Source of the DNA: Mytilus trossulus
Lineage: Eukaryota
Length of the DNA: 64,000 nt
Direction: 5' to 3'
Assembly (NCBI RefSeq): GCF_036588685.1
Contig: NC_086384.1
Span: 17,918,001 to 17,982,000, forward strand
Below the pieces are notes generated by a model. It worked only from the letters and a program-made list of their open reading frames with translations, did not search any database and was not told where the DNA came from. Position 1 is the first letter of the stretch. Each line of letters begins with the position of its first letter. Made by a program: the position numbers and the translations under genes. Below are positions 304 to 61,390 of the stretch, one piece after another.

Positions 304-449
304 TATAATATAAAACTATGCAGTATGCATTTTCTTATGCCTAATACATAACATATCAGTGCGCTTTTCCCGTTTTCATATGAATTTCTAGCTATTCGCA
401 CCAAACTAAATTATCAATGGAAATATGTGAGGGAATAAAATATATATAT

Positions 450-2062
450 TGTTATAAATGGGTGTTGATAATAATCTTAAAGAAACAACACATTTTATAT
501 TTCTAAATTTTATTGGGATCAATATCTGAAAACCTGAAAATAATGGTCTTAGATGATTTTCATACACTATAGAGACAACTTTGGCAATCTCAATTTGGGG
601 AGATCAAATTGCTTTTTTTTTATAATAAGTACCAATTTTATCAGATAACATAACATTTAACATAACGTCTATCAACTTATCAAGTTGACATAGCGGTAAA
701 ATTCAACTGTCAGTGAACAGGCACTTCGATCACGATTTTCACGGGTCTACATTAAATTCACACTTTCAGGGGATAATGGGTTTATAAAACATGTTTGTCG
801 TTACCTATTCATTCAGTCTCAGTGTTATTTGACACATCTTTTGGGAAGTTTTCCCTTAAATTCCATCGTGTCGAGTGCTTGTTTACGTATATTGGAAGTT
901 GCCATTCAAACGATTGGTCACTTCCGGGTAACGGTACTTCTTTATAAAGTTATAATAATACATAAAAGTATTATTAAGATATGATTAAATTACTTGCTGG
1001 CCTTCCTTTCATTGTGTAGGATATTTAATAATAGGAAATAATTACGTTAAGTACGTTTTTGTGAAGCGCCGTTAAGGAACTATTTTGTGATTTCAATGAC
1101 GTCATATAGTAACGTAGGTGATAAGGCTACGAGTATGGAATTTTAAGGTTTATATTTATTATGTCACTTATTTATTGGAATTAAAGGCAAACTTTCGCGA
1201 TTTTATGTATTTATAACGACATTTTGGGACATGAGCCAGAGTTTCCCTTAGTATTTCAAAGTTATAGTAGATTTTCAGTTCTGTGAGTCGCGGATGTATT
1301 TCACCGTCAAGTATAAATACGGCGTCGCACTAGCACTTTGGCATATCGTATCTGGCTATCAAGCAGAGCAGTACAATAAACCAAACAAACCCTTAAAGTC
1401 AAGCAAGCTATTTAGGTACAGGATGCATTTCGATATATAGCTATTTCACCTTAAGCTATGCGATAGCATTTCAAGCCTTTATTTATCTTTTTAAAATCTT
1501 TTGGAATATTTAACTAAAAGCTCACATAAGGACGTCTAGGAACCAAATATCGCTTTTATAAATATTCCCGCTTAAGCAGGTCTTCAAAAGGAAGTGGCTT
1601 CATATTAAGTTCAATGTTTACAATTTCTAATAGCAGTTTTTGGCAAATTACACAAATTATTAAAGATGTAAAGATACGATGTCCCACCACGTTGACAACT
1701 TTCTTATATCGTAGTTTAATGAAATACGTATATTTCATTCTCTCATTATTGTATTGATAGGATAAAGTCTTGTAAATCTGTATTTATAAGTTATATCTGG
1801 GGTTCGGAAGGCCAGCATCTTACTATAACAATTTATGGTTATACTTTGTTATTGCTGATATTTGCATGCGTTATTTATTGAGATATACATGCCTACTGGA
1901 CAAGAATAAAAGTCACTCTTTTACGCTGGATTCTTCATTTATATATGATTATGCTGGAGTCAACAAACTACACTCAAAACAAGACAAAGTAACGGAACAC
2001 TATCAATAAGCAATCATACGGAATTAAAAGTACACTCGACCCCTACTCGCCCGCCTGTAACA
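450..2062 (+). repeat. 5' LTR (1613 bp)
   Basis: Starts TGTTATA, ends TGTAACA; about 20 substitutions and 2 indels versus 7273-8883 by manual comparison. Confidence 0.95.
1097..1319 (+). promoter_or_regulatory. Putative LTR promoter: CRE (TGACGTCA 1097-1104) and TATA box (TATAAATA 1312-1319)
   Basis: Consensus motifs present in both LTRs; AATAAA at 1375-1380 and 1905-1910 are candidate polyA signals. Confidence 0.45.
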
Positions 2063-2065
2063 AAC

Positions 2066-2083
2066 TGGTGTCAGAAGTGGGAT
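2066..2083 (+). promoter_or_regulatory. Primer binding site for tRNA-Leu
   Basis: TGGTGTCAGAAGTGGGAT, 3 nt after the 5' LTR, complementary to the 3' 18 nt of metazoan tRNA-Leu(CAA). Confidence 0.9.
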
Positions 2084-2274
2084 GTCACAGTCCAAAGTGG
2101 CATCCAGGATGCGAACCTCACATTTATTTTTAAATTCAACTATCTACTAATATACCAATATAATATGTCAACGTCTACGATAAAGATGGATCTTAACGTG
2201 GTGGAAATTTAATTTTATTACAATAATTATTGTACGTTATATATATTTAGGTTAACATCAGTCTAAGTCTCAAC

Positions 2275-3401
2275 ATGGCCGAGTCGCCAGATCTGGAAAT
2301 CAGATTTAGATCGGAAGAGAGAGAAAAGGAAGCAAGGCATGAGAGAAATACCTAATTTGCGGACGCAAATGAAACTTTAGAAGAACACAGAGCAAATGTA
2401 TATGCACATGGGGAGGGAGACGTAAATATAGAATATGGCATGTCTGGACAAAGAGGACAAAGGGGGATAAGTACTGATGGATTCCGATACAACAACCCAC
2501 ACATAGTCTCTATTAGACCAGAACCATATGATGGAGGAGAGGATTGGGAGGAATATATTTCCCACTTTGAGGTGTGTGCCGAACTTGGGAGATGGCGGGA
2601 CGCAGACAAAGTATTAGCGCTAGCGGCAGCATTAAGGGGACCAGCAAGGACATTTTACATTAGTTTAGAACAGACGGAAAAACGGGATTACGGTATTTTG
2701 ACTCAAAGATTAGGATTACGATTTGGGAGTACAAGACAACAAAACAGATGGCTTTCTCGTCTTGAAATGAGAAAAAGGAACCCAGGAGAAGCAATAGCGG
2801 CGTGGCGGACGATCTGCGCCAGATGGCTCAGAGAGCTTATATGGATCTTGATGCAAGGGCTCGGGAAGTATTGGCACTGAACCAGCTGTACAAAAGCGTT
2901 ACACCTGAAGTAAAATACCAATGCACTAACCAGGGATGTAGAACTGTTGCGGGAGCTGTAGAGGTAATAGAAAGATATGAAGCTATAATAGGAGATGGCT
3001 CAGAAAAGAAGAAAGGCGGTGTCAGAATGACAACAGACACACATTTCGGAGAAGCATCTAATTTTTCACAGGAACCTTCGGAAAACCAATTTCACGATAG
3101 CATTGATGGACTAACAAGGAGGATTTCCCAGCTTGAAGGTACAAAACAGAATTATAGCAACTCTTGGCAAAATAATTATAACAGAAGGCCTCAATGGGGA
3201 AATACTAATAACAGGCAAGCTAAATGCTTCATTTGTGAGAGCACAAGTCACTTATGTAGATATTGTCCATTTTATCTTCGATACAAGCAAGAAAATGCAA
3301 GACATGACAAAACTGGAGGACAGCAAGGCTCCAAGGACCAGGATAACAGAAACTCACAAAGTCTCAACCAGGGAAACTTCAGTTCCCCATTGGCTCGATA
3401 G
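2275..3401 (+). pseudogene. gag: Gag, disrupted by a stop at 2353-2355 and a frameshift near 2803
   Basis: ATG 2275 is in frame with ORF 2440 (PEPYDGGEDWEEYISHFEVCAELGRW, a Gypsy gag N-terminus); ORF 2802-3401 carries the CX2CX4HX4C knuckle CFICESTSHLCRYC. Confidence 0.88.
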
Positions 3402-3420
3402 ACCGGGAACCAGTGGGAAA
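3371..3420 (+). promoter_or_regulatory. -1 ribosomal frameshift signal (G GGA AAC plus downstream stem-loop)
   Basis: X XXY YYZ heptamer in gag phase; the -1 frame is open into the protease ORF; GTTCCC/GGGAAC and CATTGG/CCAGTG pairings follow. Confidence 0.75.
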
Positions 3421-4947
3421 TTTACGGTCACAGGAATTAAGTCACAATATTAGGATAGAACAAATGGGAAATACATGTGGTGTATGGGATAACGGATTTT
3501 ATACAAAAGGATACCTACAAAACTTACCTTTGACAATATTAATAGACAATGGATCAACCTCCTCTATATTAAATTATAAAATTTACAGACAGTTAGCTGA
3601 TGTACTGAAAAACGCAATACTAGAACCAAGCACATATAAACTTTTTGATGTAAATGGCAATCCTTTATGCTCATACGGGACACTTAAACAAAAACTCACT
3701 TTAGGGACAGCAGATTTTAACACAGAATTTCTTGTCTGTGATATCAAACAAGATGCGATCTTGGGGCAGGATTTTCTATTGGATCATATAGACAAAATTG
3801 AGGAGACAGTCACTTTGCCGGGAAAATCTAAAATGATCATTCCAGTAATAATAGAAAATGCAGAACACTTAGGACCACTGGGATACGTTGATAAAACTCA
3901 GAAAAAGGATACAGAACATAACATCACTAGTGGAATTTTAGATCCACACCAGGAAGACATTAGAGTACAATTAATTACTTTTCGGGAAGAACCCATGAAC
4001 AGATAGGTGTATGTGAGTCCTACTATGAAATGCCAGAGGTAGGAGTATGCAATTACATTGGAACAGAAGGGACCAGTTCAGACAAGCTACCATCACATAT
4101 TGATGACTTATTTAACAGAAGTATTGTACATTTACAAGAAAAAGAAAACCGATACCTGAAGGAACTTCTTCAGGCATACTCAGACGTTTTTGCAAAATCA
4201 GCGGATGATATGGGGAGAAACTTTCAAGCCGATATTTTCCAGAGAATGTGCAATCTATTAGGCATTCATAAAACCCGAACTACGAGTTTCAGACCACAAT
4301 CCAACGGTGGTGTGGAACGTTTCAATAGAACACTTGCCTCTATGTTATCGATGTACTGTAAACAAAAACAAGATCAATTGGACCAGTATCTACAACAGGT
4401 GATGATGGCATACAGATCTTCCGTACATGCATCTACTTCAAAGACACCAAATGATATGCTCTTTGGAAGGGAGGTAACTTTACCGCTGCAGGCTGTGATC
4501 CCACAGCCAGATACTGAAATTCAAGAAAACCGGTTACCAGATGACTATGTGGCACACCTACAAAATAAATTAAAAGAAAATCATGCATTTGCAAGGAAAG
4601 CACTCAAAAAGATCTCTATATATCAGAAAAAGAGATATGATCTTAACGCCAAGAAAAGAATCTTTAAAAGGGGGGAAGCTGTTTGGATTTACGACCCAAT
4701 AAGGAAAAAGGGAGTATGCTCAAAACTCACACCTAAATGGAAAGGACCATTTATAATTGAAAAGAGAATAGATGATGTTACTTACTGAGTAAAAAGAAGC
4801 TTGAGGCAGCCTTCGACTGCATATCATGTGGATCGTTTAGCACTGTATCAGGGGTGGAATGTACCATCGTTGGCAAGCAGATTTCGAAGAATGATGGATT
4901 TAGAGGAAGCAAATAACGACCAGCAATTGGATAAGCCAGTTGGCTAA
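3371..4947 (+). pseudogene. pol: Pol remnant: aspartic protease plus integrase C-terminal half; RT and RNaseH absent
   Basis: LIDNGS...ILGQDFL protease; frameshift near 4000; DMGR|NFQADIF junction; integrase TTSFRPQSNGGVERFNRTL, WKGPF and YHVDRL; in-frame TGA at 4786-4788; natural stop 4945-4947. Confidence 0.9.
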
Positions 4948-5351
4948 ATATTGGAGGAATATTAAAGGTCCTCAGCATTCTGTACCTGTTCATACTTTTA
5001 TTTTTGGATATACTGCAGTATATATTTTTTTATGACAGATCTGTCGGAGAACGATTTGGGGGTGGTCTGATCAACCACTAGTCAAATCATTGAGATATAG
5101 GATAGGGATCCTGACTGACTAAGGAGGAGCCTAGTAGTCGAATTAATTTTGGATATGAACAGTTATAGATATTTTTTGAGTTGTTTCGTTGGTGTTATTT
5201 GCATGGTTTTGAGTTGAGTTTACTTGCCTACGGATGCTGGCCTTCCATGAACACATTTATAGAACGAGACGGGGGGGGGGGGGGGGGGGGGATTTTAACT
5301 TATTATATAAACAATACAGGGAATTAATGGCAGTATTCCTTGTATTTCAGA

Positions 5352-6884
5352 ATGAGTTCAGTGGTATCGACAAAATGCTGGTTATGCCCGGAAACCTATG
5401 AAAAGAAAAAGGACATGAAGAGCCATGCCATCTCCGAGCATTCGGTGTGCAGAGTTGTTTGTCCATGGTGTGTAGATAGTGAGAGGACGTTTGGCAGGAT
5501 GTCGGAGCTCACCAAGCACAGTAAGAGAAAACACAATGATCTAACCATAGACCTCCTGGAGGGTGATTTCTTTACAGAGCCAAATGGATTTTGGTTAGCC
5601 AAGCGTCCAGATGATTATATTAGAATTATAAAGCCCTCAGAATGGACGAGCACGATTGCCCTCAGGACCAGGGCAGCACTGTTGGGATGGGTGGAAGCCA
5701 CCAAGAAGGAGGGATCAGATAAACATAAGAAGTCATGGGAAGAAGGATGGAAGAAAGCACTGGGTCATTCCGTTACCAGTGAGCAGCTCACCAGCTCCCG
5801 GAAACGGAAATACAGTCCATCCAGACCTCTAGTGGACCTTCCTGAACTAGCAGTAGCCAGGATTGACCTATCATCTAAGGGGAACATAGGCTTTCTTAGA
5901 ATGAAGGAGTCGTCAGCAGAAATATGGTTCAAGGTAAAAATGGTACATTGGGTTATGGAGGACTCCAGGACAAAGGACAATTTGGTTAGGAGAATGGGCA
6001 TTGCAATAACAGACCATGAGCCACCACACAGTTTTGGAACAGAACTTAAGTTGTCTGAGTCAAAGTACACCTTGAATCAGGTAACCAAGGCGTTGGGAAT
6101 TGGTGAGAGACATTTCAGGAAGCTCTTTAAGGGAAAGGTGACGTTTGAAACTAAGTCCAGGAAGAAGGCAGAGGAAACAACCAGGGAAGAAAGTAGTAAA
6201 TCTGATATTGGAGAAGAGCCAGAGTACGAGATCATGTACTCTATTGGAGAAGTAGACAACCTAGAAAAAAAGGAACAACCAGAAACAGCTAAGAACATCT
6301 CAACAACCCAGGAACCATCAGAAAAAGTTGCAGATGTCCCACCTACAGCCGAAAAGAAAAAACCAAGCAAGCCAGTACCAATTCAAGACAGCCCTCTTAA
6401 GAAGCTAGACAACGAAGAGAAAGATAGGTATTTACCAATGTTGAGCGAGGACGAGGAGGAAGAAGAGGCAACATCAGAGAGGTCAGATAAACGAATCATA
6501 ATGGTGAGCCAAAAGGAAGTGTTTGATGTAGACACTGATGATGAGGAAACAACCAAGATATCACTTAGAGAGAGGGCAGAGAAGCTATTAAAGGCAGGAG
6601 GGATGTCCCTATTTCCACAAGGGAGGAGACAATGGGCCGGAGAAAGAATGCAGGTGTCGAGTAAACCAACACCAATGTTCTGGCCGCCCAAGGAATGGAG
6701 GAAATTGACAGCGGATCAGAAGCTGACAGCATGGAGGTTCGCTGCCATGACCTTGGCAAGGGAGCATGGAGTCGACATCGTCAAGGAAGAGAGGGACGTG
6801 CTTGATAAGTATGCCATGCTTGCCTTGCCAGGTACTGCGTTACCTAATCAACCTGGAGAAGACTTGATTATAAAGGCTCGGTAG
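5352..6884 (+). CDS. Retrotransposon accessory ORF3: tandem C2H2 zinc-finger protein of unknown function (510 aa; frame stays open to 7064 past the TAG)
   Basis: CWLC-x12-H-x4-H and CPWC-x15-H-x4-H fingers; basic RKRK motif; acidic tracts; no signal peptide or TM segment; ATG immediately after ttccttgtatttcAG. Confidence 0.8.
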   Translation: MSSVVSTKCWLCPETYEKKKDMKSHAISEHSVCRVVCPWCVDSERTFGRMSELTKHSKRKHNDLTIDLLEGDFFTEPNGFWLAKRPDDYIRIIKPSEWTSTIALRTRAALLGWVEATKKEGSDKHKKSWEEGWKKALGHSVTSEQLTSSRKRKYSPSRPLVDLPELAVARIDLSSKGNIGFLRMKESSAEIWFKVKMVHWVMEDSRTKDNLVRRMGIAITDHEPPHSFGTELKLSESKYTLNQVTKALGIGERHFRKLFKGKVTFETKSRKKAEETTREESSKSDIGEEPEYEIMYSIGEVDNLEKKEQPETAKNISTTQEPSEKVADVPPTAEKKKPSKPVPIQDSPLKKLDNEEKDRYLPMLSEDEEEEEATSERSDKRIIMVSQKEVFDVDTDDEETTKISLRERAEKLLKAGGMSLFPQGRRQWAGERMQVSSKPTPMFWPPKEWRKLTADQKLTAWRFAAMTLAREHGVDIVKEERDVLDKYAMLALPGTALPNQPGEDLIIKAR

Positions 6885-7260
6885 GCCAACTACCACTTGT
6901 TGAAAGATATTTGTCTTGGTAAACTGGAAGGAATTGAAGCTTTGGAATTAATAGATATGCTGGAAGCCGCAACCCGATCAAAAACACAAAATGAATTAGT
7001 AAAATTATTATGTAATGTACCTCTGAGTTTGTCAGAAGATGTTAAGGAGGATAAATCACATTAACTGTATATACTTTTTTATACTATCTAAGATGACAAC
7101 GACCATGCCATCACCAAGAAGAATAAAGATCAAGAGAGACTTAGAACTGTCAAATTTTATTGTTATTGTTCTTTTGTGTTGTAATACTTTTAGTTCATTG
7201 CATATATATATTATCATGTGTACAATACAAAAAAGAATTCGGGAGAATTCTTTTTATATT

Positions 7261-7272
7261 GGGTGGGGAAAG
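7261..7272 (+). promoter_or_regulatory. Polypurine tract
   Basis: GGGTGGGGAAAG directly abutting the 3' LTR. Confidence 0.85.
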
Positions 7273-8883
7273 TATTATAAATGGGTATTGATAATAATCT
7301 TAAAGAAACAACACATTTTATATTTCTAAATTTTATTGGGATCAATATCTGAAAACCTGAAAATAATGGTCTTAGATGATTTTCATACACTATAGAGACA
7401 ACTTTGGCAATCTCAATTTGGGGAGATCAAATTGCATATTTTTATAATAAGTACCAATTTTATCAGATAACATAACATTTAACATAACGTCTATCAACTT
7501 ATCAAATTGACATAGCGGTAAAATTCAACTGTCAGTGAACAGGCACTTCGATCACGATTTTCACGGGTCTACATTAAATTCACACTTTCAGGGGATAATG
7601 GGTTTATAAAACATGTTTGTCGTTACCTATTCATTCAGTCTCAGTGTTATTTGACACATCTTTTGGGTAGTTTTCCCTTAAATGCCATCGTGTCGAGTGC
7701 TTGTTTACGTATATTGGAAGTTGCCATTCCAACGAATGGTCACTTCCGGGTAACGGTACTTCTTTATAAAGTTATAATGATACATAAAAGCATTATTAAG
7801 ATATGATTAAATTACTTGCTGGCCTTCCTTTTATTGTGTAGGATATTTAATAATAGGAAATAATTACGTTAAGTACGTTTTTGTGAAGCGCCGTTAAGGA
7901 ACTATTTTGTGATTTCAATGACGTCATATAGTAACGTAGGCGATAAGGCTACGAGTATGGAATTTTAAGGTTTATATTTATTATGTCACTTATTTATTGG
8001 AATTAAAGGCAAACTTTCGCGATTTTATGTATTTATAACGACATTTTGGGACATGAGCCAGAGTTTCCCTTAGTATTTCAAAGTTATAGTAGATTTTCAG
8101 TTCTGTGAGTCGCGGATGTATTTCACCGTCAAGTATAAATACGGCGTCGCACTAGCACTTTGGCATATCGTATCTGGCTATCAAGCAGAGCAGTACAATA
8201 AACCAAACAAACCCTTAAAGTCAAGCAAGCTATTTAGGTACAGGATGCATTACGATATATAGCTATTTCACCTTAAGCTATGCGATAGCATTTCAAGCCT
8301 TTATTTATCTTTTTACATCTTTTGGAATATTTAACTAAAAGCTCACATAAGGACGTCTAGGAACCAAATATCGCTTTTATAAATATTCCCGCTTAAGCAG
8401 GTCTTCAACAGGAAGTGGCTTCATATTAAGTTCAATGTTTAAAATTTCTAATAGCAGTTTTTGGCAAATTACACAAATTATTAAAGATGTAAAGATACGA
8501 TGTCCCACCACGTTGACAACTTTCTTATATCGTAGTTTAATGAAATACGTATATTTCATTCTCTCATTATTGTATTGATAGGATAAAGTCTTGTAAATCT
8601 GTATTTATAAGTTATATCTGGGGTTCGGAAGGCCAGCATCTTACTATTACAATTTATGGTTATACTTTGTTATTGCTGATATTTGCATGCGTTATTTATT
8701 GAGATATACATGCCTACTGGACAAGAATAAAAGTCACTCTTTTACGCTGGATTCTTCATTTATATATGATTATGCTGGAGTCAACAAACTACACTCAAAA
8801 CAAGACAAAGTAACGGAACACTATCAATAAGCAATCATACGGAATTAAAAGTACACTCGACCCCTTCTCGCCCGTCTGTAACA
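7273..8883 (+). repeat. 3' LTR (1611 bp)
   Basis: Near-identical to 450-2062; begins TA instead of TG; ends TGTAACA. Confidence 0.95.
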
Positions 8884-8893
8884 ATATATATAT

Positions 8894-13247: not shown

Positions 13248-14441
13248 CTAAGATACAGCTATGAAAAATGCACAGTTGATAATGAAAATATTTGCATATA
13301 GTATTACCATCATAAGTGTATCTAGAGCATGACAAACTTCTTGCCAGGTTATGTTTGTCTCTATAGGCGAGGATATTATATCCCCCTTTGCACCATTCTT
13401 AGTCAACGGCCGCACAGGTGTATGCCTTCTACTCCATGGTAATCTCGTCCCGATAAACTTCCAAAAAGAGTTCATTTTAACGTGTGGTTCTCTATGATAA
13501 AGTGCCGCTATGTAAATAGTTACACCAGCTGTGATACCGCTTATTACAATAGTCACTATCATTATAATCAGTAAAACACTCATCGGATTTGAAGAGGCTG
13601 GTATGGACGTTTGTACCATTGTCAGGAATATAGCATACGATAATAATATTGTCATCGCAAGTCCTAAGCGTTCACCAGATTCAACAGGAAGTAGAAACAC
13701 GAGCGGGTTTAATACAAAGAACATATTTGTTGGCAAAGCTACCATTATGACGTAGTACAACGGCACACGCTTTATCGTCATTGTAAGTATAAGCATAGAG
13801 TACCCGTTCTCAACTATAGATTTTGAACTATAGGAATCTAGTTTCCAATTTGAATTTTCATTGTAAAACGCTAAACTCATAGGGTTTGCGACTATGGTTA
13901 TATCGTTTGATGTTATTCCCCAGACGGCAAATTGCAGATGACATGTTTGAGAATCAAATGGAAACTTGTATATATTGGCTGTACATTTCGATGACAAAAC
14001 ATCACCATAAGCTATTGACATGGTTCCATTAGAATAAACTGTTGCAAATATATCGTTTTCTCCCGCTAAAGGTTCATATGTTTCAACAGAATTTACCAGA
14101 ACAAACTTTGGAGTCCACACATCTGTGTGAGGCACTATAATATATTCCGCATTACCGTATGATGATGGAGTCCACGAAAATCCGTCATCAACCCAGTTTG
14201 CTATAAGTCCTAAAGCCACGTCTAGAGTTTCTTCCACTTCCTGAAACTGAGTAATGGTCATTAAATAGGGTGATATTGTTATTTGTAATGGTGCTGAAAA
14301 ATCAGAATTTGGAACGATGGATGGTTGGTAACTTGTAAAAATATCAGTATATAATTGTCTTATATTTGACGATGTCTGACCATGAACATGGTTCAAAAAA
14401 AGAATAAATAAAAACATTCCGAAAATTTTACAATTATCCAT
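13248..14441 (-). CDS. Intronless nicotinic acetylcholine receptor-like subunit (Cys-loop pLGIC, non-alpha), 397 aa
   Basis: Signal peptide, WTP motif, Cys-loop CTANIYKFPFDSQTC, four TM segments, LPVESGER before M2; first ATG at 14441 (the ORF track start 14474 is GTG). Confidence 0.93.
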   Translation of the reverse strand: MDNCKIFGMFLFILFLNHVHGQTSSNIRQLYTDIFTSYQPSIVPNSDFSAPLQITISPYLMTITQFQEVEETLDVALGLIANWVDDGFSWTPSSYGNAEYIIVPHTDVWTPKFVLVNSVETYEPLAGENDIFATVYSNGTMSIAYGDVLSSKCTANIYKFPFDSQTCHLQFAVWGITSNDITIVANPMSLAFYNENSNWKLDSYSSKSIVENGYSMLILTMTIKRVPLYYVIMVALPTNMFFVLNPLVFLLPVESGERLGLAMTILLSYAIFLTMVQTSIPASSNPMSVLLIIMIVTIVISGITAGVTIYIAALYHREPHVKMNSFWKFIGTRLPWSRRHTPVRPLTKNGAKGDIISSPIETNITWQEVCHALDTLMMVILYANIFIINCAFFIAVS

Positions 14442-15560
14442 TGTAATGAAACATCCAACACAAGTTATGTTCACAAATATACGAATAACCGTTTGAATAA
14501 CAGCTTAAATAATGCAGCCTTCCGTGATTTTCATGTATTTAAATATGGTGTCTCTACAAAAACCTACATTTTTGTAGTAAGTATTTAATATTAATCGAAA
14601 CAAATCTGCTTTAATTAAATGTATTTCAATAAAAAGATTAACAGTTATATATATACATATAGACGATTTAAAGTAAACTATTCCAAATATTATGATTACT
14701 ATAATATCAAATTTTATAACATGATACCACTTTCAATCAATGGAATGTTTACAAATGTCCACCGAGGACACACGTCTTAAGAGATAATTATCCATATTAA
14801 ATCAAAAAGTAAAAGTAAAAAGAAAAAAATCCTTGATGTCCAGCTTGTTTCTACCATGCCGTAAATGCATGTTAAAAATAGAAATTATGCAAAATGTACG
14901 GTATGTTTTTTGTCATTGTTGAAGGAATTATACATTGTATTAATTTCCTTTTAGTTTTTCTATTAGAATTATCATGCGAACAATTGGTCATAACAATTGT
15001 TATAATACAGGCTTACTGTTGTAAAAACTGTTTCTCCCAAGTAACAAGCTATAAAATTGTAATTGTTGGCATTTGGTTTGACTAGACCAATAACAGTAGA
15101 TTCTTTAATCGGTCATTAGCCTAATTGCAATATTTTCAGATGTTCGGGAGAATAAATTCGTTCCATAGTGTGCAAGAGACCTTTAGTTACACCCAAAAAA
15201 TGAATTTAGTGGCCCCATATATATATCTTTTTAGGTCACTACCAAACTACGTAACTAATGGTATACATTATAGTATTTATCTTAATACAATGAATCAGAC
15301 CACTGATCATATAACAAAAATTTAAATGTATCTGACTCTATGATTACTTAGTTATCCGGCTTAAGTGATCAATGTTTAAATATTGTTATTACACAAGAGC
15401 ATTCAAATTAAATACTAGAAAGAGGTACTTACAAAGAACACATTACACATTAAATGTTCCTTAGTCAAGTGTGTATCAATTGAAAAATATCGATACTTAA
15501 TTTGAAGAAGTTGGGAACAGTTTGTATACTGTGTTTGGGTTTGTTCAATAAAGTTATGTA

Positions 15561-32870: not shown

Positions 32871-34073
32871 TTACAAAGATATAGTTATAAAATAGGCACA
32901 AATAAGGATCACTGTGGCAGAATACGCTATAACCAACATGATATTATCGAGTCCATCACACACATCCTTCCACGTTATAAATATCTCATTTTTACATTTC
33001 ATATTGTCCTTCTCAGCATCGTTGCACAGCGGCATAACTTGGGTAATTTTGTTACCCCTATGCCACTTTTGTCCAATAAATTTCAATAAAAAGTTCATTT
33101 TTGCCGATTCCTCTCTATAATAAAGTGATGATATGTAAATGGTAACAACAGCAATGATTCCACTCAGCAGTATAGTCGCTACCATTATGATAAGTAAAAG
33201 ACTCATCGGATTTGACGCGGCTGGTATGGACGTCTGCACCATGGATAGAAAAATAGTATACGATAATAGTACTGTCAATGCAAGTCCTATTCGTTCTCCG
33301 GCCTCAACCGGAAGTAAAAATACCAATGGATTTAAAATACTAAATAAAATAAATGGACAAATCACTATAACTGTGTAATATAACGGTGAACGTTTCAATG
33401 TCAGTTCAATCAGAAAAATAGAATATCCTGTTGAAGGATGTGTTATCAAACTATTAGATACTAATTCCCAGTCTGAGTTTGGTGTGAAAGAGGATAAATC
33501 AATTGGGTTTGAAACTCCTTTCAAACGTATGTCCATCGCATAAACACCCCAGGCAGCAAATTGTAATTCACATGTTTGTGAATCGAATGGAAATTTGTAT
33601 ATATTTGTACTACACTTTGAAAATAATACCTCACCATACGAAACAGCCATAGAACCATTGTAATCGATAGTCACAGACAGTTCATTTCCTAATCCCATTG
33701 GTTGCAATGTACCAACAGAATTTAAAAGTACTAATTTTGGTGTCCAAACGGTTTTTTGTGGCACTATTACATATTTGGCATTTCCATATGAAGAAGGTGT
33801 CCATGAAAACTCACCATCCGTCCAGAAGGCTGATATTCCTGCCGCTATCTGTAAAGTCTCTTCCACTTCTCGAAATTGGGTGATTGTCATTAAATGAAAT
33901 TGCAATTTTACTTCTAACGGAGAAGAGAAATCCGAATTAGGAATTAACGATTTTTGGTGGTTCGTAAAAATATCACTGTAAAGTTGTTTCATATCTGATA
34001 AAGTTTGACTATTTCCTGATGATAATATAACAAGAAAAAATATAAAACTAGCTGGTGTATCGTCGATATACAT
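32871..34073 (-). CDS. Intronless nicotinic acetylcholine receptor-like subunit (non-alpha), 400 aa
   Basis: Signal peptide, Cys-loop CSTNIYKFPFDSQTC, LPVEAGER, four TM segments; paralog of the genes at 13248 and 41463. Confidence 0.94.
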   Translation of the reverse strand: MYIDDTPASFIFFLVILSSGNSQTLSDMKQLYSDIFTNHQKSLIPNSDFSSPLEVKLQFHLMTITQFREVEETLQIAAGISAFWTDGEFSWTPSSYGNAKYVIVPQKTVWTPKLVLLNSVGTLQPMGLGNELSVTIDYNGSMAVSYGEVLFSKCSTNIYKFPFDSQTCELQFAAWGVYAMDIRLKGVSNPIDLSSFTPNSDWELVSNSLITHPSTGYSIFLIELTLKRSPLYYTVIVICPFILFSILNPLVFLLPVEAGERIGLALTVLLSYTIFLSMVQTSIPAASNPMSLLLIIMVATILLSGIIAVVTIYISSLYYREESAKMNFLLKFIGQKWHRGNKITQVMPLCNDAEKDNMKCKNEIFITWKDVCDGLDNIMLVIAYSATVILICAYFITISL

Positions 34074-35484
34074 TCTTATTTACCAATGAACAACACTAAA
34101 TGGTGTTAAAAAAAAAAATAATCCTATGAATTAGTGTGTCGTGTACATTACCTTCGGAATCATTTAAATATAATTGTATTTAACAACGCAGAACAGTAGT
34201 ATGATTTCATAAGTGATTAAATATCTTTCAAGCAAGGCATTAAAATTAAACCACAACTAGATTATTAATAACAGTCATGTCACGTTACTTCAAAGAGGTT
34301 TAAATATTATTCAAACAATTTACTAATTGGAAACTTAATAGCAAATTGATCAATAATAATATTTGCTTTTTTGTTATGGTGTATTATTATGTCGGTATCT
34401 TTTTTTTAAGATAAAGTGAATTACTTTTACAATTGAAACGTCAGGGGAAGAGGGGTTCTATTATGAATTATGTAAACAAACGTGAAACTAGAATTAGAAA
34501 AATAATCTCTACTCATATTTGCAAATTGAGACTATAAAGGTCTTTTAGTTCAAAATATAAATTGGAATGACAACACTTGTAATGAAAAACATGCATTAAT
34601 GAATTGTCAAGTGCATGAAAATTTGAGTTATTTTTTGTTTTATCAAGCATCTCTATGTAATGTTATTTTTATGCATTTGTCTGATAAATGATATTTTGAT
34701 TCACATATGAAAATATGTACTTTTTTACTGACAAAATATACATTAAAATTTTGACATTTTATTGAAATGAAGATTTATTTTATATTGCTAATTAAGATGT
34801 AAATAATAAAAAGATACCTTTTAGATAGTATATCATACTCTTTTTTTAGAGTGGCTCTTGTATGTTTAAAGATGATGTGTTGGTATCCTTTTGTATGGTT
34901 TATATAAAAAAGAGATGGGACTTAAAATTAAATGTTGCCTTGTTTTGTCTTGCCTTGTCTATATTGAAGGTTTAAAAAAAAAACATATCCCTACATACAT
35001 GTTTATCGAATTAAAGTCATTTGAAACGAGTGACTGGTGAAAAATTCAATTATGTAACCAATGCATGGATACATAATAAACTCTCTCTGTCTGTTACGAA
35101 GTGAAAATATGGTAGCTCATTTATTGTTGTGGTTTACCGATTGTGGCCTTATAGTAAACAATCAACAAGAAAGCATGGATAATAAGCAAGTGTATTAAAT
35201 GTACAATTATATAATAGCTTATTTCAATGACAGATCCATGTGTATTGCGTTTGCCAGATTTTTACGATAAGGGTCGCGCTAAGGTCACGTTGAATACGGA
35301 AAATATGCCGACGACTTGCTTCCTAGAAGCAAGAAATAAAAAAAAAGTAAACTTCTTCTAAACGTGGACACATTTAAGATTTTTTTTAAGGAAAAAGTAT
35401 ATGTACATATTAGGTTGAATAACGACAATTACCCATTTTGTTAAAAAAACATATGCATTATTATTTGTTTTCTGGTCTGTGGCT

Positions 35485-41462: not shown

Positions 41463-42668
41463 TTAACTTACAATTACGTGAAATGTTGTTATCAAACAGA
41501 GCATTGTGACGTACGAGACAATCAAAAACAAAATATCAAGTCCATAACTTACATCCTTCCAACTTACATATCCAGGAAGAGGAGAGGTTTTACAAATTAC
41601 ATGTTTTTCCTCAGTAATTGGAACTACAGTAACAATATTGTTTTTTCGGGTCCATGGTAGTCGAGATCCAATCAGTTTCCAAAAAGCATTCATTTCCTTC
41701 GTGTCTGCTCTGTAGTACAGATACGTTATAAATATGGACATAACCACGATGACACCACTTATTACGATCGTCATTATCATTATGATTAACAAGTAACACA
41801 TAGGATTTGACGATGCTGGTATGGCTGCAGAGACTAATGTAAGAAAAATTGCGTATGATAGAAGTATTGTCATACCAAGTCCTATGCGTTCTCCGGATTC
41901 AACAGGAAGTAGAAACACTAGCGGGTTAAGTAAACCAAATAGAGTGGTTGGACAAACTACCATAACACTATAATATAAAGACTCTCGTTTTATTGTAAGA
42001 AAAATCTCAAATGTTGAATAGTGGTTCCATATCACAGCCCGTGAATGGTACGATGTTAGATCCCAGTTGGAGTTTGGTGTGTAGAACAACATGCTTATTG
42101 GATCTGAGCTTTCTGTTAACACGGCAGTTTCATTTGAAAGTCCCCATACCGCGAACTTCAAATTACACGTCTGTGAATCGTAAGGGAATTTCGATATGTC
42201 CGTTGTACACTTTGCTGACAATATTCCACCTAAACCCAAAGTCACATTTCCGTCACTATAAATAGTCGCAAGATTGTTTATACTCCCTCCAATGGGTGCT
42301 AAATTGTCGACGGCGTTTACTAAAATCATTGGAGGTTTCCAGATGTGTTTACTTGACACAATAGTGTACGGTATATTACCATAAGAATTAGGATTCCACG
42401 ATATTCCAGCATCATTCCATTCACAATGCAATCCACCTAAAACTTCAATAGTTTCATCAATTTCTTCAAATTTATTGATGCTCATCATATAAAATGTCAT
42501 TTGTATCTGTAACGGCGTGCTGAAATTCGAACGTGGTATTACCTCTTTTTGATGATTAGCAAAAACATCTGCGAATAATTGTTTTTCATCGGAGAGGTTT
42601 TGTCCACTGCAATAGTTCAAGACAAGAATTACTAAAGTCGAAAATAATGAAATGGTGAACATGGTCAT
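41463..42668 (-). CDS. Intronless nicotinic acetylcholine receptor-like subunit (non-alpha), 401 aa
   Basis: Signal peptide, Cys-loop CTTDISKFPYDSQTC, LPVESGER, four TM segments. Confidence 0.94.
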   Translation of the reverse strand: MTMFTISLFSTLVILVLNYCSGQNLSDEKQLFADVFANHQKEVIPRSNFSTPLQIQMTFYMMSINKFEEIDETIEVLGGLHCEWNDAGISWNPNSYGNIPYTIVSSKHIWKPPMILVNAVDNLAPIGGSINNLATIYSDGNVTLGLGGILSAKCTTDISKFPYDSQTCNLKFAVWGLSNETAVLTESSDPISMLFYTPNSNWDLTSYHSRAVIWNHYSTFEIFLTIKRESLYYSVMVVCPTTLFGLLNPLVFLLPVESGERIGLGMTILLSYAIFLTLVSAAIPASSNPMCYLLIIMIMTIVISGVIVVMSIFITYLYYRADTKEMNAFWKLIGSRLPWTRKNNIVTVVPITEEKHVICKTSPLPGYVSWKDVSYGLDILFLIVSYVTMLCLITTFHVIVS

Positions 42669-43475
42669 CGATCAGTTAGACATTATCCAGCGGCACAAAT
42701 ATCAACGAATAATTGATGGTTTGTTATTTTCAGCTAATGTATTTTGAAAATGAAACATTCAATATGGTCAATCAGACTATACCCAGAATCGAAATGAGAC
42801 TTTCAGTTGCTGTTATAATATTTATCTTGTAAGTTGAAACTGATATTTGCGATCGAAATAAAAATGCGACTTTTTTTAAAAAGAAAAGAAAGACATAATC
42901 ATATTTAATTAATACGTTGTAATAGTAGATAAAAGGAAAACATAAATTAGGTTTTATTCAAATATTTAAATAGGATATTTTATATTTTCATGTCAATATT
43001 CTTTGTAACATAACCGTTATGTAAATAATGAGTTTATAATTGTAATTACTTCTCCGTTCAATGGAATCAATTTTAGTTGCATGAAGCCTTGATTAATAGA
43101 CACCAATTTGCTGCATTCAAGAAACTTTCTGCGTCAGCTAATATTTAGACTCCTAGAAATAATTATCTATAATATCTATCTTGTTGATCACACATGCTGA
43201 TTTCTTCATACGTGGTTTTGTTAATTTGCTTGATTTCTAAAAAAACATTATATCGGAAATTCGAAAGTTTAAAGCAAGAAAGGGATTGTAGACGGTATAA
43301 ATTTGCAGCATTGCTACAATCGACAGAATTAAATCAAACCATACAATTACCTGCAGGTCTGTCATACAATAAAGAGATATTAATCTATCTATAAAACCAG
43401 GTTTAAACCACCATTTCCTTAAAAAAAAAATTAAAAAATGCCTGTACCAAGTTATGATTGTGGTTTTCTGTTCTC

Positions 43476-48099: not shown

Positions 48100-48310
48100 T
48101 TAAAAACGTAAATTATTTTTTAGCAGGATTATGTTGTCGAAAACTGATGAAAACTGTTGAAGTCTTTTAGTGAAAGAACTGTCTTTGTAAAATTAAGATG
48201 TGGGGAGGCTCCTATCAGACTTGAAACTGGAATATATGAAATTTTGCCACTGGAAGAGAGATATTGTTTTATTTTTTTTAAACTGTTGGAGATGTATATA
48301 TTTTGTCAAT
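48100..48310 (+). mobile_element. LINE C-terminal fragment (also at about 52170-52380 and 57530-57740)
   Basis: LRCGVAPIRLETG-Y motif, characteristic of non-LTR RT C-termini. Confidence 0.55.
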
Positions 48311-49600
48311 GAAACTGAATTGTATAAAAATAATTTATTAATTTTCTTTTTACCTTACCTTGGAGGAACATGTGATCCATACACACATGGCGTTCTTTTT
48401 ACCTAGACCAGTGTTAAATCAAGCTAAAGGAAAATAACGCTTGGGACAACAGTAGGGAGAAAATACATGTAAGACATATGACAATTTATAACGATAAATA
48501 ACTTGAAGAACTAAAAATAATAATATGACAGAAAATTCTTCCTATGTTTCTATGTAATAAAATTTACCACAAGCATTCATCGCATCTTCCTCTGCTATTT
48601 TCATGGTGTACGGTTCTGTATAAAAAGATTTCGTGTCTGTACTGCCTCTGACGATACAACACATGTATTATTCAAACAACATAGTCGCGATATATAGCTT
48701 TCTTGTGCAGAGGCGACCTAGATAACCACAAATCAGTCAATCATATAATAAATCATAAAAAATCACCAGCTAGAGAATTGATATGTGTGGAAGCATTACA
48801 ACGCTATACAATCTTCTTTTTTATAATTGTCGGATTTTTCTTCTTTTTGGGACGTGTTATTATAGTATTCTTTTATTTTTCTCTATTTATATTACTTTTA
48901 CGGTTTCGTCTTTTTTTGATGATATCCATTTGACGTGACTCTGTACTTATGCATGCCGTTATTGTGTTATTGTTCTATAATTTGTGTATTCTCATCTTCC
49001 TTTTTGGCTGATTTGCTTAAAGTCTCTGTCTATATGAATGTTTGTTTTTCTTTGATACACATGACGTGGCTCTGTACATATAAATCCCGTCATTTTGTAT
49101 TTGTTCTATGATAATTTTTGTATTCTTCAGTTGTCTTTCATATTTGTTAATGCTTGGTCTATATGCCCTATGGAATCTGATGCGACTGTCATACACATGA
49201 GAGGTTTATCTAGCTATAAAACCAGGTTCATTCCGCCATTTTCTACATACGAAAATGTCTGTACCAATTCAGAAATATGACAATTATCCTTTCGCGTGAA
49301 GTTACCTGGCAAACAAACAAAAAAACGCACTCATTAAGAAACAAATTAAACTATTTTTGAATAAGTTTGTGTAATTTACGCGGTCAGCTTTGATTTACGA
49401 ATTTTTTATCTTTTTTAATCTAGATGCGGAACATAATTGAAAATCGATTTAAGTGACAATATAATTATATATGTTAATATAATTGATATGTTGAGCTGTT
49501 TTTACCAACCTTTTTAATACACAAAACTTTGTTTGATAAATGTCTAGATTTTATTTTAAAAAAGCAACAACTGCAAAATAGTATTATCTTTATATAGTAT

Positions 49601-49830
49601 TACGTGGCTAAATGCAAAAACTGAATAAAGTTTAAAATACTATCTCTTCACCCAAGTAATGGTTTCTTATTTTACATTCGTATCGAAATGTATCGTCGAG
49701 TTTTTATTTTATAATACGTGGCTAAATGCAAAAACTGAATAAAGTTTAAAATATTATCTCTTCACCCAAGTAATGGTTTCTTATTTTACATTCGAATCGA
49801 AATGTATCGTCGAGTTTTTATTTTATAATA
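49601..49830 (+). repeat. 114-bp direct tandem duplication, present in all three segmental copies
   Basis: tacgtggctaaatgc... at 49601 and 49715. Confidence 0.9.
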
Positions 49831-51477
49831 CATTAATACGAATTATAGCTAAATTAAATGTGAACATTGGTGCCTTTGTTTTTTTCTCATATCTTAAGTT
49901 TTTTTTTTTAAAGTTTCTAATGTTGTTTCTGTTTTTTAGGGGGGTATTCTTATTCTTTTCTTTCTCTGTTTTGTGATAAAATTGATTATGTTATAAAATG
50001 TTAAAAACTAAAATAAATAAAAAATGAATTAATAAAAACAGAGGCAACGAAATTTTTCCTAGACGTGTGCGTGAACATAAAATGCAGATACTTAAAGAAT
50101 GTTTCTACACGTACATGAAATCGAAAGACATCTGATAAAATAAACATACTTTCACAATACATGTATTTGATAACAAAAATATAAAACCACCCATTGCATA
50201 ATAATAAGCTCTAAAACGTCAGGGTTCAAGCTAGGTCAAATAAATGGATAAACGTCGTGCAAAAAGGAAAAGCGGAAACTAGGTATGACATGTAAAAGTA
50301 GTCCGTGTGTAGATAATAGAGCAAACAAACCTATTAGATATCCATTCATGACACAACATCACTACATGCACAGAAACAAAAAGCAAAAGAACACATCAAC
50401 AATATCACTATAAGCAATTATAATCAAAATATCGACTGTATGTCAATGTCTTTTCACTGTATCGGAAAGAACAATTTGTCACTACTCAATTTGTTTAGGT
50501 ATGTTACACACAATGATTGCGTTTGAAATTAAATCAAATTATTGAAGATTCATTAGAAAAAAATATTACTGGAACAAATAAACAAACTAAAGCGCCAATT
50601 CAATTAAAAACGTATTAACCGCATGACGCTTATTTTAGAAGCCTTGTGGTATTATATATTAATTGATTTACAGTACCCCAGTCTTTGCATCATCAAAATC
50701 TGCGAATTTTGTGCGATATATTTTCGCCTTATTTTTTTTTTTATATATATATATAAATATGTAAGACTCATTTCGACATCCGATCTCTAATCGGTATCTG
50801 TTCTTCAAATCGCATTCAAATCATTTGTAGTAGGATTCCAACTTGTCGATCGATTCCCTCTTGAGAGTCGATTCCCTCTTATTCTGATAGAGTACTGAAC
50901 TCGATCTTAAAATTTATTTTAAACTTCAAATATTGCATTCTGTTTCATATTAAAGAAAAAGGTGTTTGATGGATAAAATTATGGCATGTTCAACTATATT
51001 TGTGAACTATTTGCAAATAACAGAGTCCACTAGAGGACACGAGATAAACATAACCTACTTTATCTACCAAACGTGCATACAGAACATTGAGTCGTTTAAT
51101 GAAGAATACGTAACAAGTATTTAGTATTTATTCTCTAGTAAACAATAATTATAGTAATAGTATGGAGCTGAACAGTTAATTTGTTGTCAATGCAAACAAC
51201 AGTCATGAAAATATTGGTATATACAATGTTAATTAATGTTACGATATTTGGTTTCGTAACAATAAATTTAAAGCACTTGATCATAGTTTAAAAAAATAGA
51301 AATATTTCAGAAAAAATTCACTGAAATACTGAGTGAAAATTCTTTTTATCAATTTGTCTGCATACACGACATGTGTACTGACTTGGTCTTAGAAACTCAA
51401 GACTGTCCTTATTGTTTCAACCAACTGAAGCAAAGGGAAACTTGAACTTTGTTCACCACTGATAGTTGCTTTTTCAA

Positions 51478-52120
51478 CACCGGTCTCTGATAATAAAGAT
51501 CCGCAATTCATGTTCTTTATAACCATTGTAATCAACCGGACCATGATACTTATCTATGAAAGTACGCATCATCGAAAAACTTTATCACCACACAAACAAT
51601 CCTGTACTTAGTACTCCTTTCCGAAAAGATAGAGAAAATTTCTGGATAAGAGAACTAGGTACTGCAATGCCATGTGGTGGCAATAATAATGTCAAAGGAG
51701 TAGGAAATTTGTCAAGTCCAGCATGCAGTGATGTTAATGTAATGAGTTTTTTTCATACTACCTTACGAAACCAACGTAGTCATGGGAAAAAACGTTACCA
51801 TCGGCCTAATGTAAAAAAAAGTCTTCCAAATCTAGATCGCCCTCTGGAAGCTTTAATGACCTTCTTTCTCATCTTCATCATCCGTTAGGGTTACATTACA
51901 TTAGAACTATTCTTTATTCACTGCCAGTTAATTTTCCAAAATGTTTGAGAGATTATGCACTTGACAAAGGTCAATATACAGACTTGTCAGTATAATTTGT
52001 GATGTAGCTCTTTTCCGTCTCTTTAAATCAGTAAGATCGGAACCTTTACATGAGAAAAAGAGGAAATTTCTTCCTGTTTACTTACCAATAAAGGAATTGA
52101 TGCAATCAACATCAGCAATG
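51478..52120 (+). mobile_element. Penelope-like element fragment (GIY-YIG C-terminal half), copy 1
   Basis: HCNQPDH...RIIEK...RENFWIRELGTAMPCGGN, matching the PLE GIY-YIG RE-x-x-WI-x-x-L-x-T-x-x-P-x-G-x-N motif. Confidence 0.8.
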
Positions 52121-52387
52121 TATTATAAATATTTCCTTTATTCATCCTCTCCCAGACAGGGAAATTGGCGTTTAAAAACGTAAATTATTTTATGCAGGAT
52201 TATGTTGTCGAAAACTGATGAAAACTGTCTTTTAGTGAAAGAACTGTCTTTGTAAAATTAAGATGTGGGGTGGCTCCTATTAGACTTGAAACTGGAATAT
52301 ATGAAATTTGTCACTGGAAGAGAGATATTGTTTTATTTTTTTTTAAATGTTGGAGATGTTTATATTTTGTCAATGAAAGTTGTATAA

Positions 52388-53685
52388 CTAGAGGCTCCAA
52401 AGAGCCTGTGTCGCTCACCTTGGTCTATGTGAATATCAAACAAAGCAGATGGATTCATGACAAAATTGTGTTTTGGTGATGGTGAAGTGTTTGTAAATCT
52501 TACTTTACTAAACAGTCTTGCTGCTTACATTTATCTCTATCTATAATGAACTTGGCCAAGTAGTTTCAGTAGAAAATTTTAATAAAAATTTACAAATTTT
52601 ATGAAAATTGTTAAAAATTGACTATAAAGGACAATAACTCCTTAGGGGGTCAATGGACCATTTCGGTCATGTTGACTTATTTGTAAATCTTACTTTGCTG
52701 AACATAATTGCTGTTTACAGTTTATCTGTATCTATAATAATATTCAAGATAATAACCAAAAACAGCAAAATTTCCTTAAAATTACCAATTCAGGGGCAGC
52801 AACCCAACAATGGGTTGTCAGATTCATCTGAAAATTACAGGGCAGATAGATCTTGATCTGATTAACAGTTTTACCACCTGTCAGATTTGCTCTAAATGCT
52901 TTGGTTTTTGAGGTATAAGCCAAAAACTGCATTTTACCCCTATGTTCTATTTTAGCCGTGGTGGCCATCTTGGTTGGTTGACCGGGTCACGCCACACATT
53001 TTTAAAACTAGATACCCCAATGATGATTGTGGCCAAGTTTGGTTCAATTAGGCTTAGTTGTTTCAGAGGAGAAGATTTTTGTAAAAGATAACTAAGATTT
53101 ACGAAAAATGGTTAAAAATTGACTATAAAGGGCAATAACTCCTAAAGGGGTCAACTGACCATTTCGGTCATGTTGACTTATTTGTAAATCCTACTTTGCT
53201 AAACATTATTGCTGTTTACAGTTTATCTCTATCTATAATAATATTCAAGATAATAACCAAAAACAGCAAAATTTCCACAAAATTACCAATTCAGGGGCAG
53301 CAACCCAACAACGGGTTGACTGATTCATCTGAAAATTTCAGGGCAGATAGATATTGACCTGATAAACATTTTTACCTCATGACAGATTTCCTCTAAATGC
53401 TTTGGTTTTTGAGTTATAAGCCAAAAACTGCATTTTACCCCTATGTTCTATTTTTAGCCGTGGCGGCCATCTTGGTTGGTTGACCGGGTCACGCCACACA
53501 TTTTTTAAACTAGATACCCCAATGATGATTGTGGCCAAGTTTGGTTCAATTTGGCCCAGTAGTTTCAGAGGAGAAGATTTTTGTAAAAGTTAACAACGAC
53601 GACGGACGACGGACGACGGACGACGACGGACGCCGGACGCAAAGTGATGGGAAAAGCTCACTTGGCCCTTCGGGCCAGGTGAGCT
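52388..53685. mobile_element. Helentron-associated non-autonomous element (HINE/DINE-1/pearl-like) with two 501-bp internal repeats
   Basis: Absent at the paralogous empty sites (48321, 57742: tgtataaaaataat); subterminal IR gctcacct/aggtgagc, (GACG/GAC)n microsatellite, terminal hairpin ggcccttcgggcc; inserted in an A-run. Confidence 0.88.
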
Positions 53686-56600: not shown

Positions 56601-56838
56601 TACGATATTTGGTTTCGTAACAATAAATTTAAAGCACTTGATCATAGTTTAAAAAAATAGAAATATTTCAGAAAAAATTCACTGAAATACTGAGTGAAAA
56701 TTCTTTTTATCAATTTGTCTGCATACACGACATGTGTACTGACTTGGTCTTAGAAACTCAAGACTGTCCTTGTTGTTTCAACCAACTGAAGCAAAGGGAA
56801 ACTTTAACTTTGTTCACCACTGATAGTTGCTGTTTCAA

Positions 56839-61273: not shown

Positions 61274-61390
61274 CAGAGGCGGATTTAGGGGGCAGGAAGG
61301 CGCACCCCTTTTTGCGAAAGAAATTGGTTGCTAATATAGGGAATCACTGAAGCGTGACTGGAGCGGGCCCCTTCTTAGGATCCGCCACTG
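61274..61390. mobile_element. 117-bp MITE
   Basis: TIR CAGAGGCGGAT/ATCCGCCACTG; 5-bp TSD CTTAT; empty site gacgcttatttt in copies 1 and 2. Confidence 0.85.

Follow-up and report, generated by a model that had tools for sequence, protein, structure and literature searches.

Ty3/Gypsy retrotransposons are usually taken as simple elements, made of gag-pol and sometimes env, that are reliant on host transcription factors. In the mussel Mytilus trossulus, a long sense frame (ORF3) is found between the integrase and the 3′ LTR of one such element, in the place of env, and the question is whether this gene belongs to the element and, if so, what it may do there. The DNA that was analysed, hereafter the window, is a stretch of 64,000 nucleotides (contig NC_086384.1, positions 17,918,001 to 17,982,000, forward strand), with positions counted from its first letter. 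An earlier note, made from the letters of the window and without database searches, had proposed that ORF3 encodes a DNA- or chromatin-binding regulator, either a transactivator or an anti-silencing factor.

The element and the product of its third gene

A single LTR retrotransposon, of the Ty3/Gypsy type and with paired LTRs, was found at 450-8883 of the window (table 1). Its LTRs form a 1.61-kb pair, in keeping with the 1.6 kb given in the earlier note, and are identical at 1591 of 1610 aligned bases. In this copy pol has lost some 2.2 kb near 4215, RT and RNase H included; the Ty3/Gypsy order gag, protease, RT, RNase H, integrase is recognized by motifs in sister copies of all four families A-D described below. 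A pol deletion common to three copies leaves about 250 nt of the integrase end. The primer-binding site is presumably that for tRNA-Leu. The window has a run of 20 G at 5271-5290; at this place the G tract of the reference sister copy is short and interrupted.

Table 1. Features of the retrotransposon and of its third gene, in window positions.
Feature	Position	Strand	Basis or remark
Target-site duplication ATAT	446..449, twin 8884-8887	.	4-bp duplication also in one copy each of families A-D
5′ LTR, 1613 bp, TG...CA	450..2062	+	LTR alignment
TATA-like box	1312..1319	+	sequence; promoter role inferred
LTR motif, reverse complement of leader motif 2195-2204	1684..1693	+	sequence; predicted RNA pairing around primer site
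Primer-binding site, 18-mer identical in families A-D	2066..2083	+	sequence comparison
Leader motif complementary to 1684-1693	2195..2204	+	sequence
gag, one stop and one frameshift, CCHC knuckle near end	2275..3401	+	frame reading
pol remnant, protease and integrase C-terminal part	3347..4947	+	integrase frame ends 4947
Splice-acceptor-like tract, ending one base before ORF3 ATG	5336..5350	+	sequence
ORF3, 510 open codons, premature stop 6882-6884	5352..6884	+	ATG at 5352
Two C2H2 fingers (residues 9-30, 37-61), both with Trp between the cysteines	5376..5534	+	Pfam, model, alignment
Helical aromatic-rich domain beside fingers (residues 64-136)	5541..5759	+	model, alignment
Middle alpha/beta domain (residues ~165-265)	5844..6146	+	model, alignment
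C-terminal domain, ~165 residues, conserved, cut by stop 6882-6884	6561..7061	+	profile, alignment
Polypurine tract	7261..7272	+	comparison with sister copies
3′ LTR, 1611 bp, starting TA in this copy	7273..8883	+	LTR alignment

The 510 open codons that had been noticed between the integrase end (4947) and the polypurine tract were confirmed, with an ATG at 5352. The description of 5352-7064 as one uninterrupted span was wrong: the frame is broken by the in-frame stop at 6882-6884, and the 59 codons that follow (6885-7061) are its untranslated rest. In three sister copies ORF3 is open for 577-578 codons, so that the window carries a truncated form, without the last third of the C-terminal domain. 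The two N-terminal C2H2 fingers are present, with weak Pfam matches (E 0.016 and 0.13), as are the basic motifs RKRK and KSRKK and the Trp-rich C-terminal part. The protein is not Env, as had been concluded: its N-terminus is a zinc finger and not a hydrophobic segment, and no signal peptide or membrane helix is found (best 19-residue hydropathy 0.56 in a near-identical homologue), a hydropathy scan for membrane segments reaching 1.9 in 2 of 63 family members. Three further statements stood in part. The linker is acidic in the ORF3 of the window, but this is not a family trait (16 of 59 linkers are acidic and 17 of 59 rich in Pro, Ser or Thr); ORF3 is better preserved than gag and pol in this copy, but elsewhere in the genome copies occur in which gag and pol are open over long stretches; and the domains that were listed exist, but the middle folded domain (residues ~165-265) had been overlooked.

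AlphaFold2, run with 13 sequences, predicts the fingers with an adjoining helical domain (residues 1-136), the middle alpha/beta domain (165-265), a disordered linker and the C-terminal domain (C-domain), in no fixed arrangement within the full-length model (pTM 0.35). The fingers are modelled in the beta-beta-alpha fold with a pLDDT of about 84, and their CxxC...HxxxxH pattern is conserved; Pfam zf-C2H2 is matched in 25 of 63 ORF3 homologues at E ≤ 0.05, and besides finger families no Pfam family is found in any number among these 63 members. Arg stands at -1 of finger 2 in 42 of 55 cases, and Asp or Glu at +3 in 56 of 57, finger 1 being more variable. In the classical finger code, Arg at -1 with Asp or Glu at +3 reads an nCG triplet, and the residues of finger 2 suggest that it may, as a prediction, read such a triplet.

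A Trp is found between the two cysteines in 33 of 41 first fingers and 38 of 52 second fingers, and the inter-finger linker is of six residues, hydrophobic, most commonly R-L-x-V-V/I and not of the TGEKP type. With its Trp and its non-canonical linker the pair recalls the tandem CWCH2 pairs of the Zic/Gli/Zap1 type, for which roles other than DNA binding are proposed in the accessible text of PMC2837044. The nearest solved shapes to the finger region are finger pairs of CTCF, Kaiso, ZBTB38 and ZNF524, all weak matches (Foldseek E 0.37, VIA Z 3.6-4.0). Furthermore, a K[KR]x[KR] motif is found in 43 of 63 homologues.

The linker before the C-domain ranges from 31 to 393 residues and is variable in charge. 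The C-domain itself, modelled with 107 sequences (pLDDT 92.7, pTM 0.86), has no structural match, the top hits having a VIA Z of 4.4 over 56 residues and a Foldseek E of 1.3, and is a candidate new fold. Trp, Pro, Gly, Leu and Arg are the residues most conserved in it, and no catalytic set is apparent among them. The fold searches queried both this model and the full-length one; with the latter, nothing in PDB or BFVD was matched by Foldseek at E ≤ 0.001 (best VIA Z 4.6), and the ESM Atlas returned only generic finger or unnamed clusters, all below 0.9. Mean identity across the family is 39% in the finger domain and 34% in the C-domain.

The ORF3 family in the mussel genome and across bivalves

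When the genome (1.3 Gb) was searched with ORF3, 79 matches were obtained, a number that sets aside a chance frame, and 16 kb was fetched around 20 of them. The fetched places belong to four Gypsy families, A (that of the window), B, C and D, which are 51-53% identical to each other in pol and 33-43% in the ORF3 C-domain, and in all of which the gene is found in the sense orientation between integrase and 3′ LTR. The LTRs (1406-1803 bp) are often 99-100% identical within an element, so that the insertions are recent. In family A, with 17 places, the gene borders on integrase at 13, on the spacer at 16 and on the polypurine tract or LTR at 15; counting at least 60 nt of adjoining sequence, integrase, spacer or LTR flanks 16 of these 17 and all 16 places of families B-D, the one remaining family-A place having 57 nt of adjoining element sequence. 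Nine further weak places were fetched: five lie next to LTR, spacer or pol of families A-D; three are decayed family-C fragments, of which the first has a diverged piece of LTR next to it, the second 60 nt of 3′ untranslated region, and the third stands by itself; and one has no nucleotide match to A-D and an RT-like remnant nearby. A further search, for which the family-C C-domain served as query, gave 45 matches and no long open copy free of an element. The search for the position of ORF3, which the earlier note had suggested for mollusc and other invertebrate genomes, yields in this genome family copies that adjoin integrase, spacer or LTR, and, with the same place taken in four families, ORF3 is a gene borne by the element rather than a host gene that was captured a single time. 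An RT tree was built of 25 rows, comprising elements of this genome only, midpoint-rooted and with one row dropped for its short RT match; in it the five rows with ORF3 are set apart from all others by a branch with support of 100/100.

A comparison of dN/dS among families had been suggested as well. All 29 ORF3 comparisons, each made against one reference per family and hence not independent, fall below 1 (0.11-0.64; pol 0.16-0.86), and the ORF3 of the window against three open copies gives 0.21-0.23, with bootstrap limits of 0.13-0.36. ORF3 is under purifying selection, with dN/dS of about 0.2, and is a lineage-wide, selected accessory gene of a bivalve Gypsy clade. Neither of two conditions under which the proposal of the earlier note would have fallen, a host gene captured once and a dN/dS near 1, is borne out. 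Between the same copies dS is higher in ORF3 than in pol (0.135 versus 0.059 for the window; loci G000:C1:5590643, C13:6324016, C10:22726112, C14:22388752 and others), which suggests recombination between subfamilies.

The clusters (at 50% identity) that match a C-domain profile number 348, and 150 of them were among the matches listed. At least 250 residues N-terminal of the C-domain are present in 74 of the 150 representatives, and 51 of these 74 have both other domains, 15 one and 8 neither. A taxon is given for 10 of the 30 clusters looked up, nine bivalve and one a symbiont genome bin; the bivalve taxa are four Mytilus species, Ostrea, Pecten, Argopecten, Potamilus, Dreissena and Mactra, and the members from the last two genera are numerous and scattered over contigs, like repeats. 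The family spans the main bivalve lineages, possibly with a share of horizontal transfer. A metagenome scan gave three short contigs, in one of which, of a diverged family, ORF3 stands directly before a polypurine tract and LTR start, so that the genomic context of the gene outside Mytilus is direct in that contig and otherwise indirect; no relatives were found by the scan in viral and prokaryote contig collections. Members of one cluster (P0114) are filed under ‘Candidatus Thiodiazotropha’ genome bins, and these we take to be, probably, host clam DNA in symbiont assemblies. Two gene models of Pecten maximus (P0090 and P0096) join a kinase-like N-terminal region to the ORF3 C-domain; they nest deep among element-type sequences in the C-domain tree, and are products of either co-option or chimeric modelling.

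Third genes and LTR arrays of sister lineages

An integrase search returned 132 matches, among which families A-D stand at 57-61% identity to A and the next tier at 38-47%, with a gap between. Twenty next-tier elements, picked to spread over groups, were fetched, and the domains of A-D are found in none of them. Tandem fingers follow the integrase in 13 of the 20, in 12 as a separate ORF with the pair at its N-terminus and in one fused to pol; one of the remaining sisters has another third ORF and six have none. The C-terminal module changes from one sub-lineage to another, being a KCTD-type BTB domain in five, a TatD DNase in one and one of two kinds of unnamed small domains in six, and the sister third ORFs sit inside paired repeats that are mostly 99-100% identical. 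The five BTB ORFs (L075, L078, L079, L080 and L086) match Pfam BTB_2 with E 1e-16 to 2e-18, and the best solved match of the domain is KCTD5. The KCTD-type BTB is a Cullin-3 adaptor type.

Individual sisters show how varied the slot is. Relatives of the finger-BTB ORFs are named from Mytilus and Crassostrea. In L081 (4871-6148), an element with indistinct LTR limits, the finger pair and a TatD DNase domain (Pfam E 2e-25) follow the integrase, and in L094 (346-5880) the pair is fused in frame to the pol end, the LTR having eight copies of a 7-mer that lie in tandem arrays. The different third ORF, of 505 codons, is that of L093 (4775-6289), with one internal finger-like motif; the Cys pattern at the pol end of this element we take to be PHD-like.

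Family-specific arrays of 6-7-mers (score of at least 6) are found in the LTRs of 10 of the 11 finger-bearing sisters compared, as against 12 of 70 host segments and one of four finger-less elements, in a comparison of related elements from which five with unclear LTRs were left out, with a threshold chosen after the scores were known and with exact 6-7-mers only, so that degenerate arrays could be missed. By the same exact 6-7-mers, none of the four A-D LTRs has an array (scores 2.6-4.7; host median 3.8). In the LTRs of the five finger-BTB elements the arrays are made of motifs with a CACC/CAACC core, which are related to one another but not the same from family to family. Two elements have pol 98% identical: one (L075 with L095) is without gag and has the finger-BTB gene, a 1073-bp LTR and 12 motif copies; the other (L076 with L096) has gag, no third gene, an 894-bp LTR and three motif copies. 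They are possibly complementary partners. In this small, related sample, well-defined LTRs are mostly longer in finger-bearing sisters (945-1615 bp) than in finger-less ones (543-894 bp), those of A-D being long as well, the element with fingers fused to pol (665 bp) being an exception. Finger-less elements with near-identical LTRs exist, and the gene is therefore dispensable in cis in some sub-lineages.

The fingers of A-D and those of the sister lineages align in hhalign with a probability of 80.7 over 36 columns, which does not establish their kinship, so that the analogy between the two may join independent captures. Tentatively, and with a chance somewhat short of even, a large branch of animal Gypsy elements may encode its own transcription-factor-like genes, in which LTR-recognising tandem C2H2 fingers would be combined with exchangeable effectors, namely the new fold in A-D and a Cullin-3-type BTB, a TatD nuclease or small hairpin domains in the sisters.

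Expression signals, known systems and possible roles

A pyrimidine tract with YAG at most 10 nt before the start codon is found in 15 of 19 third ORFs (sister starts having been chosen by hand, mostly as the Met nearest the first finger), the corresponding figures being 54 of 1165 for host ATGs and 4 of 153 for LTR/leader ATGs. The layout is like that of a spliced env message, and the ORF3 message is probably a spliced subgenomic RNA. In all four families a TATA-like box and then a TGGC word are found 860-1000 nt into the LTR, and by a simple donor matrix the top-ranked site lies 100-113 nt downstream of the TATA box in B and C; in A the site does not come first, and no donor stands out. Four contig sets, three of them presumed or recorded to be RNA and one of unknown type, cover the element evenly, run into the flanks and look like DNA; no joint of the 5′ end to ORF3 is seen in them, DNA-like contigs being able to show presence and not absence. 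As to words in the LTRs, no GC-containing 7-10-mer is common to all four A-D LTRs beyond chance; the best shared word, CGTCT(G), is borderline after correction (1 seen and 1.3 expected in the family of the window), CGTCTG being twofold enriched in host DNA as well; and the CpG observed/expected ratio of the LTRs (0.6-1.0) does not stand out against host DNA (0.9).

The best explanation, to which we give an even chance, is that ORF3 is a nuclear regulator that would bind the LTR of its own element and recruit host factors to keep the element transcribed. ORF3 would be expressed from a spliced subgenomic RNA, as the acceptor-like site suggests, and, judging from the basic motifs, the protein would enter the nucleus; the fingers would bind the LTR DNA of the element, a step suggested by the finger 2 residues and by the sister-lineage arrays; the C-terminal domain would recruit host factors, a role suggested by the BTB and TatD modules that sister elements carry in its stead; and transcription of the element would be maintained, by direct activation or by lifted silencing. 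The support for a regulator is indirect and comes mainly from the modular finger-plus-effector plan and the arrays of the sister lineages. Against it speak the array-free LTRs of all four families A-D, the borderline enrichment of the best shared word, the failure of a donor to stand out in family A, the number of fingers, only two, and the Trp pair, of a type for which the available part of PMC2837044 proposes non-DNA roles.

A model for such a factor is VANC, that is, the anti-silencing proteins of the Arabidopsis VANDAL DNA transposons (PMC5735166, from its accessible text), which are likewise element-encoded accessory factors and have family-specific target repeats, as the sister-lineage LTRs do; however, VANC belongs to a plant DNA transposon system, and families A-D are without arrays. 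Indeed, the absence of a motif array from all four LTRs argues against a VANC-like reading for A-D and, together with their constant recognition residues, suggests a conserved target rather than a VANC-like race, so that we lean towards a target that would be conserved between families and not fast-changing. We know of no homology between VANC and ORF3. Foamy virus Tas, HTLV Tax and HIV Rev are 3′-encoded nuclear regulators of reverse-transcribing elements, in Retroviridae; none of them, to our knowledge, is a tandem C2H2 protein, and ORF3 gave no sequence or fold match in PDB or BFVD. Errantivirus Env, including that of molluscs, takes the same position after pol behind an acceptor-like site (PMC13524379, as far as its text is accessible); unlike it, ORF3 has no signal peptide or membrane anchor and has nuclear-type domains.

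The main rival, unlikely though not without precedent, is that ORF3 acts on RNA as a Rev- or CERV-like factor, the product of spliced RNA binding a structure of the unspliced genomic RNA and licensing its nuclear export or stability. The Gypsy precedent is CERV of Cer1 of Caenorhabditis elegans, in the accessible text of PMC10309623 a nuclear protein of 517 aa and three domains, made from spliced RNA, which is required if genomic RNA is to be exported but is not required for transcription. ORF3 is like it as a non-Env Gypsy accessory protein of similar size, with folded domains on flexible linkers and a candidate basic NLS; splicing of the CERV message is shown there, whereas that of ORF3 is deduced from sequence, and CERV differs in that it shares exons with gag and has a Cys4-type loop as well as a G-protein-like domain. 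ORF3, for its part, is a single frame of its own, with a pair of C2H2 fingers and with domains that look unrelated to those of CERV. Export would also fit the lack of arrays in the A-D LTRs and the strong acceptor, which may create a need for an export aid. Furthermore, each of families A-D has a complementary pair of LTR and leader motifs, of 9-12 bp and with family-specific letters (a pair as long arises in 0, 0, 0 and 4 of 200 shuffles), which predicts long-range RNA pairing, and the same pair was not seen in 14 sister LTRs. However, such pairing may just serve priming or packaging, its duplex energy beats all 30 shuffles in A and B only, and finger 2 keeps its DNA-reading residues.

Decidedly unlikely is a protein adaptor disarming a host defence factor, e.g. 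by sequestration or degradation, with fingers that contact protein or chromatin and do not read the LTR. The KCTD-type BTB at the C-terminus of five sister ORFs, the role in protein recognition proposed for tandem CWCH2 fingers (accessible part of PMC2837044) and a C-domain without evident catalytic set would agree with it, but purifying selection and the steady conservation of fingers and C-domain are unlike a fast arms race. That ORF3 tethers the integration complex to chosen chromatin sites is very unlikely: one sister has the finger pair fused in frame to the integrase end, and the target duplications are AT-rich 4-mers, but a separate, apparently spliced gene would need to join the complex in trans, the sister with fused fingers has an LTR array, and the ORF3 region is kept in pol-deleted copies. 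That ORF3 is a piece of a host gene carried along passively, or else a decayed env, is scarcely credible, for although the two scallop models join a kinase-like N-terminus to the C-domain, they nest inside element-type sequences, the gene is under purifying selection and its places adjoin integrase, spacer or LTR, and the hydropathy scan finds no signal peptide or membrane anchor.

Non-envelope third ORFs are known from LTR elements of bdelloid rotifers, in which they are a GDSL esterase and a DEDDy exonuclease (PMC5408684, in whose accessible text the words zinc, C2H2 and BTB are absent). As in the bivalve lineage, the third ORF after pol is exchangeable and gained or lost between families there, but the bdelloid ORF3s are captured enzymes, whereas in the elements described here the finger pair is constant and the C-terminal module varies. 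In the accessible parts of the open literature, including PMC12440569, PMC13547354 and bioRxiv 10.64898/2026.08.24.746577, no C2H2, BTB or TatD third ORF is found in Gypsy elements; the word ‘ORF’ is absent from the main text of PMC6238403, whose supplements may bear on clade assignment. The accessory gene family is apparently undescribed in the open literature, and may be catalogued, without a function, in Repbase, Dfam or GyDB.

If the regulator reading is true, the finger-plus-effector gene in most sampled members of a major bivalve lineage would make these elements self-regulating, ‘complex’ retrotransposons, the animal LTR-retrotransposon counterpart of retroviral transactivators and of plant VANC, and would provide testable finger/LTR-motif pairs with which to study the escape of animal transposons from silencing. 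The C2H2 finger, itself a weapon of the host, would have been turned to the use of the element and kept through the radiation of the bivalves, a protein fold that may be new would be added, and a set of gene models annotated in bivalves as ‘uncharacterised C2H2’ and ‘BTB’ would be transposon products.

Elsewhere in the window, three single-frame genes on the minus strand (13248-14504, 32871-34079 and 41463-42671) are Cys-loop ligand-gated ion channel-like, and were labelled by eye, from motifs, as acetylcholine-receptor-like subunits. A tandem repeat of about 5.36 kb is present in three copies at about 48300-63300, the third being broken up by a 20-30-bp satellite, of which a part near 58100-59300 is inverted.
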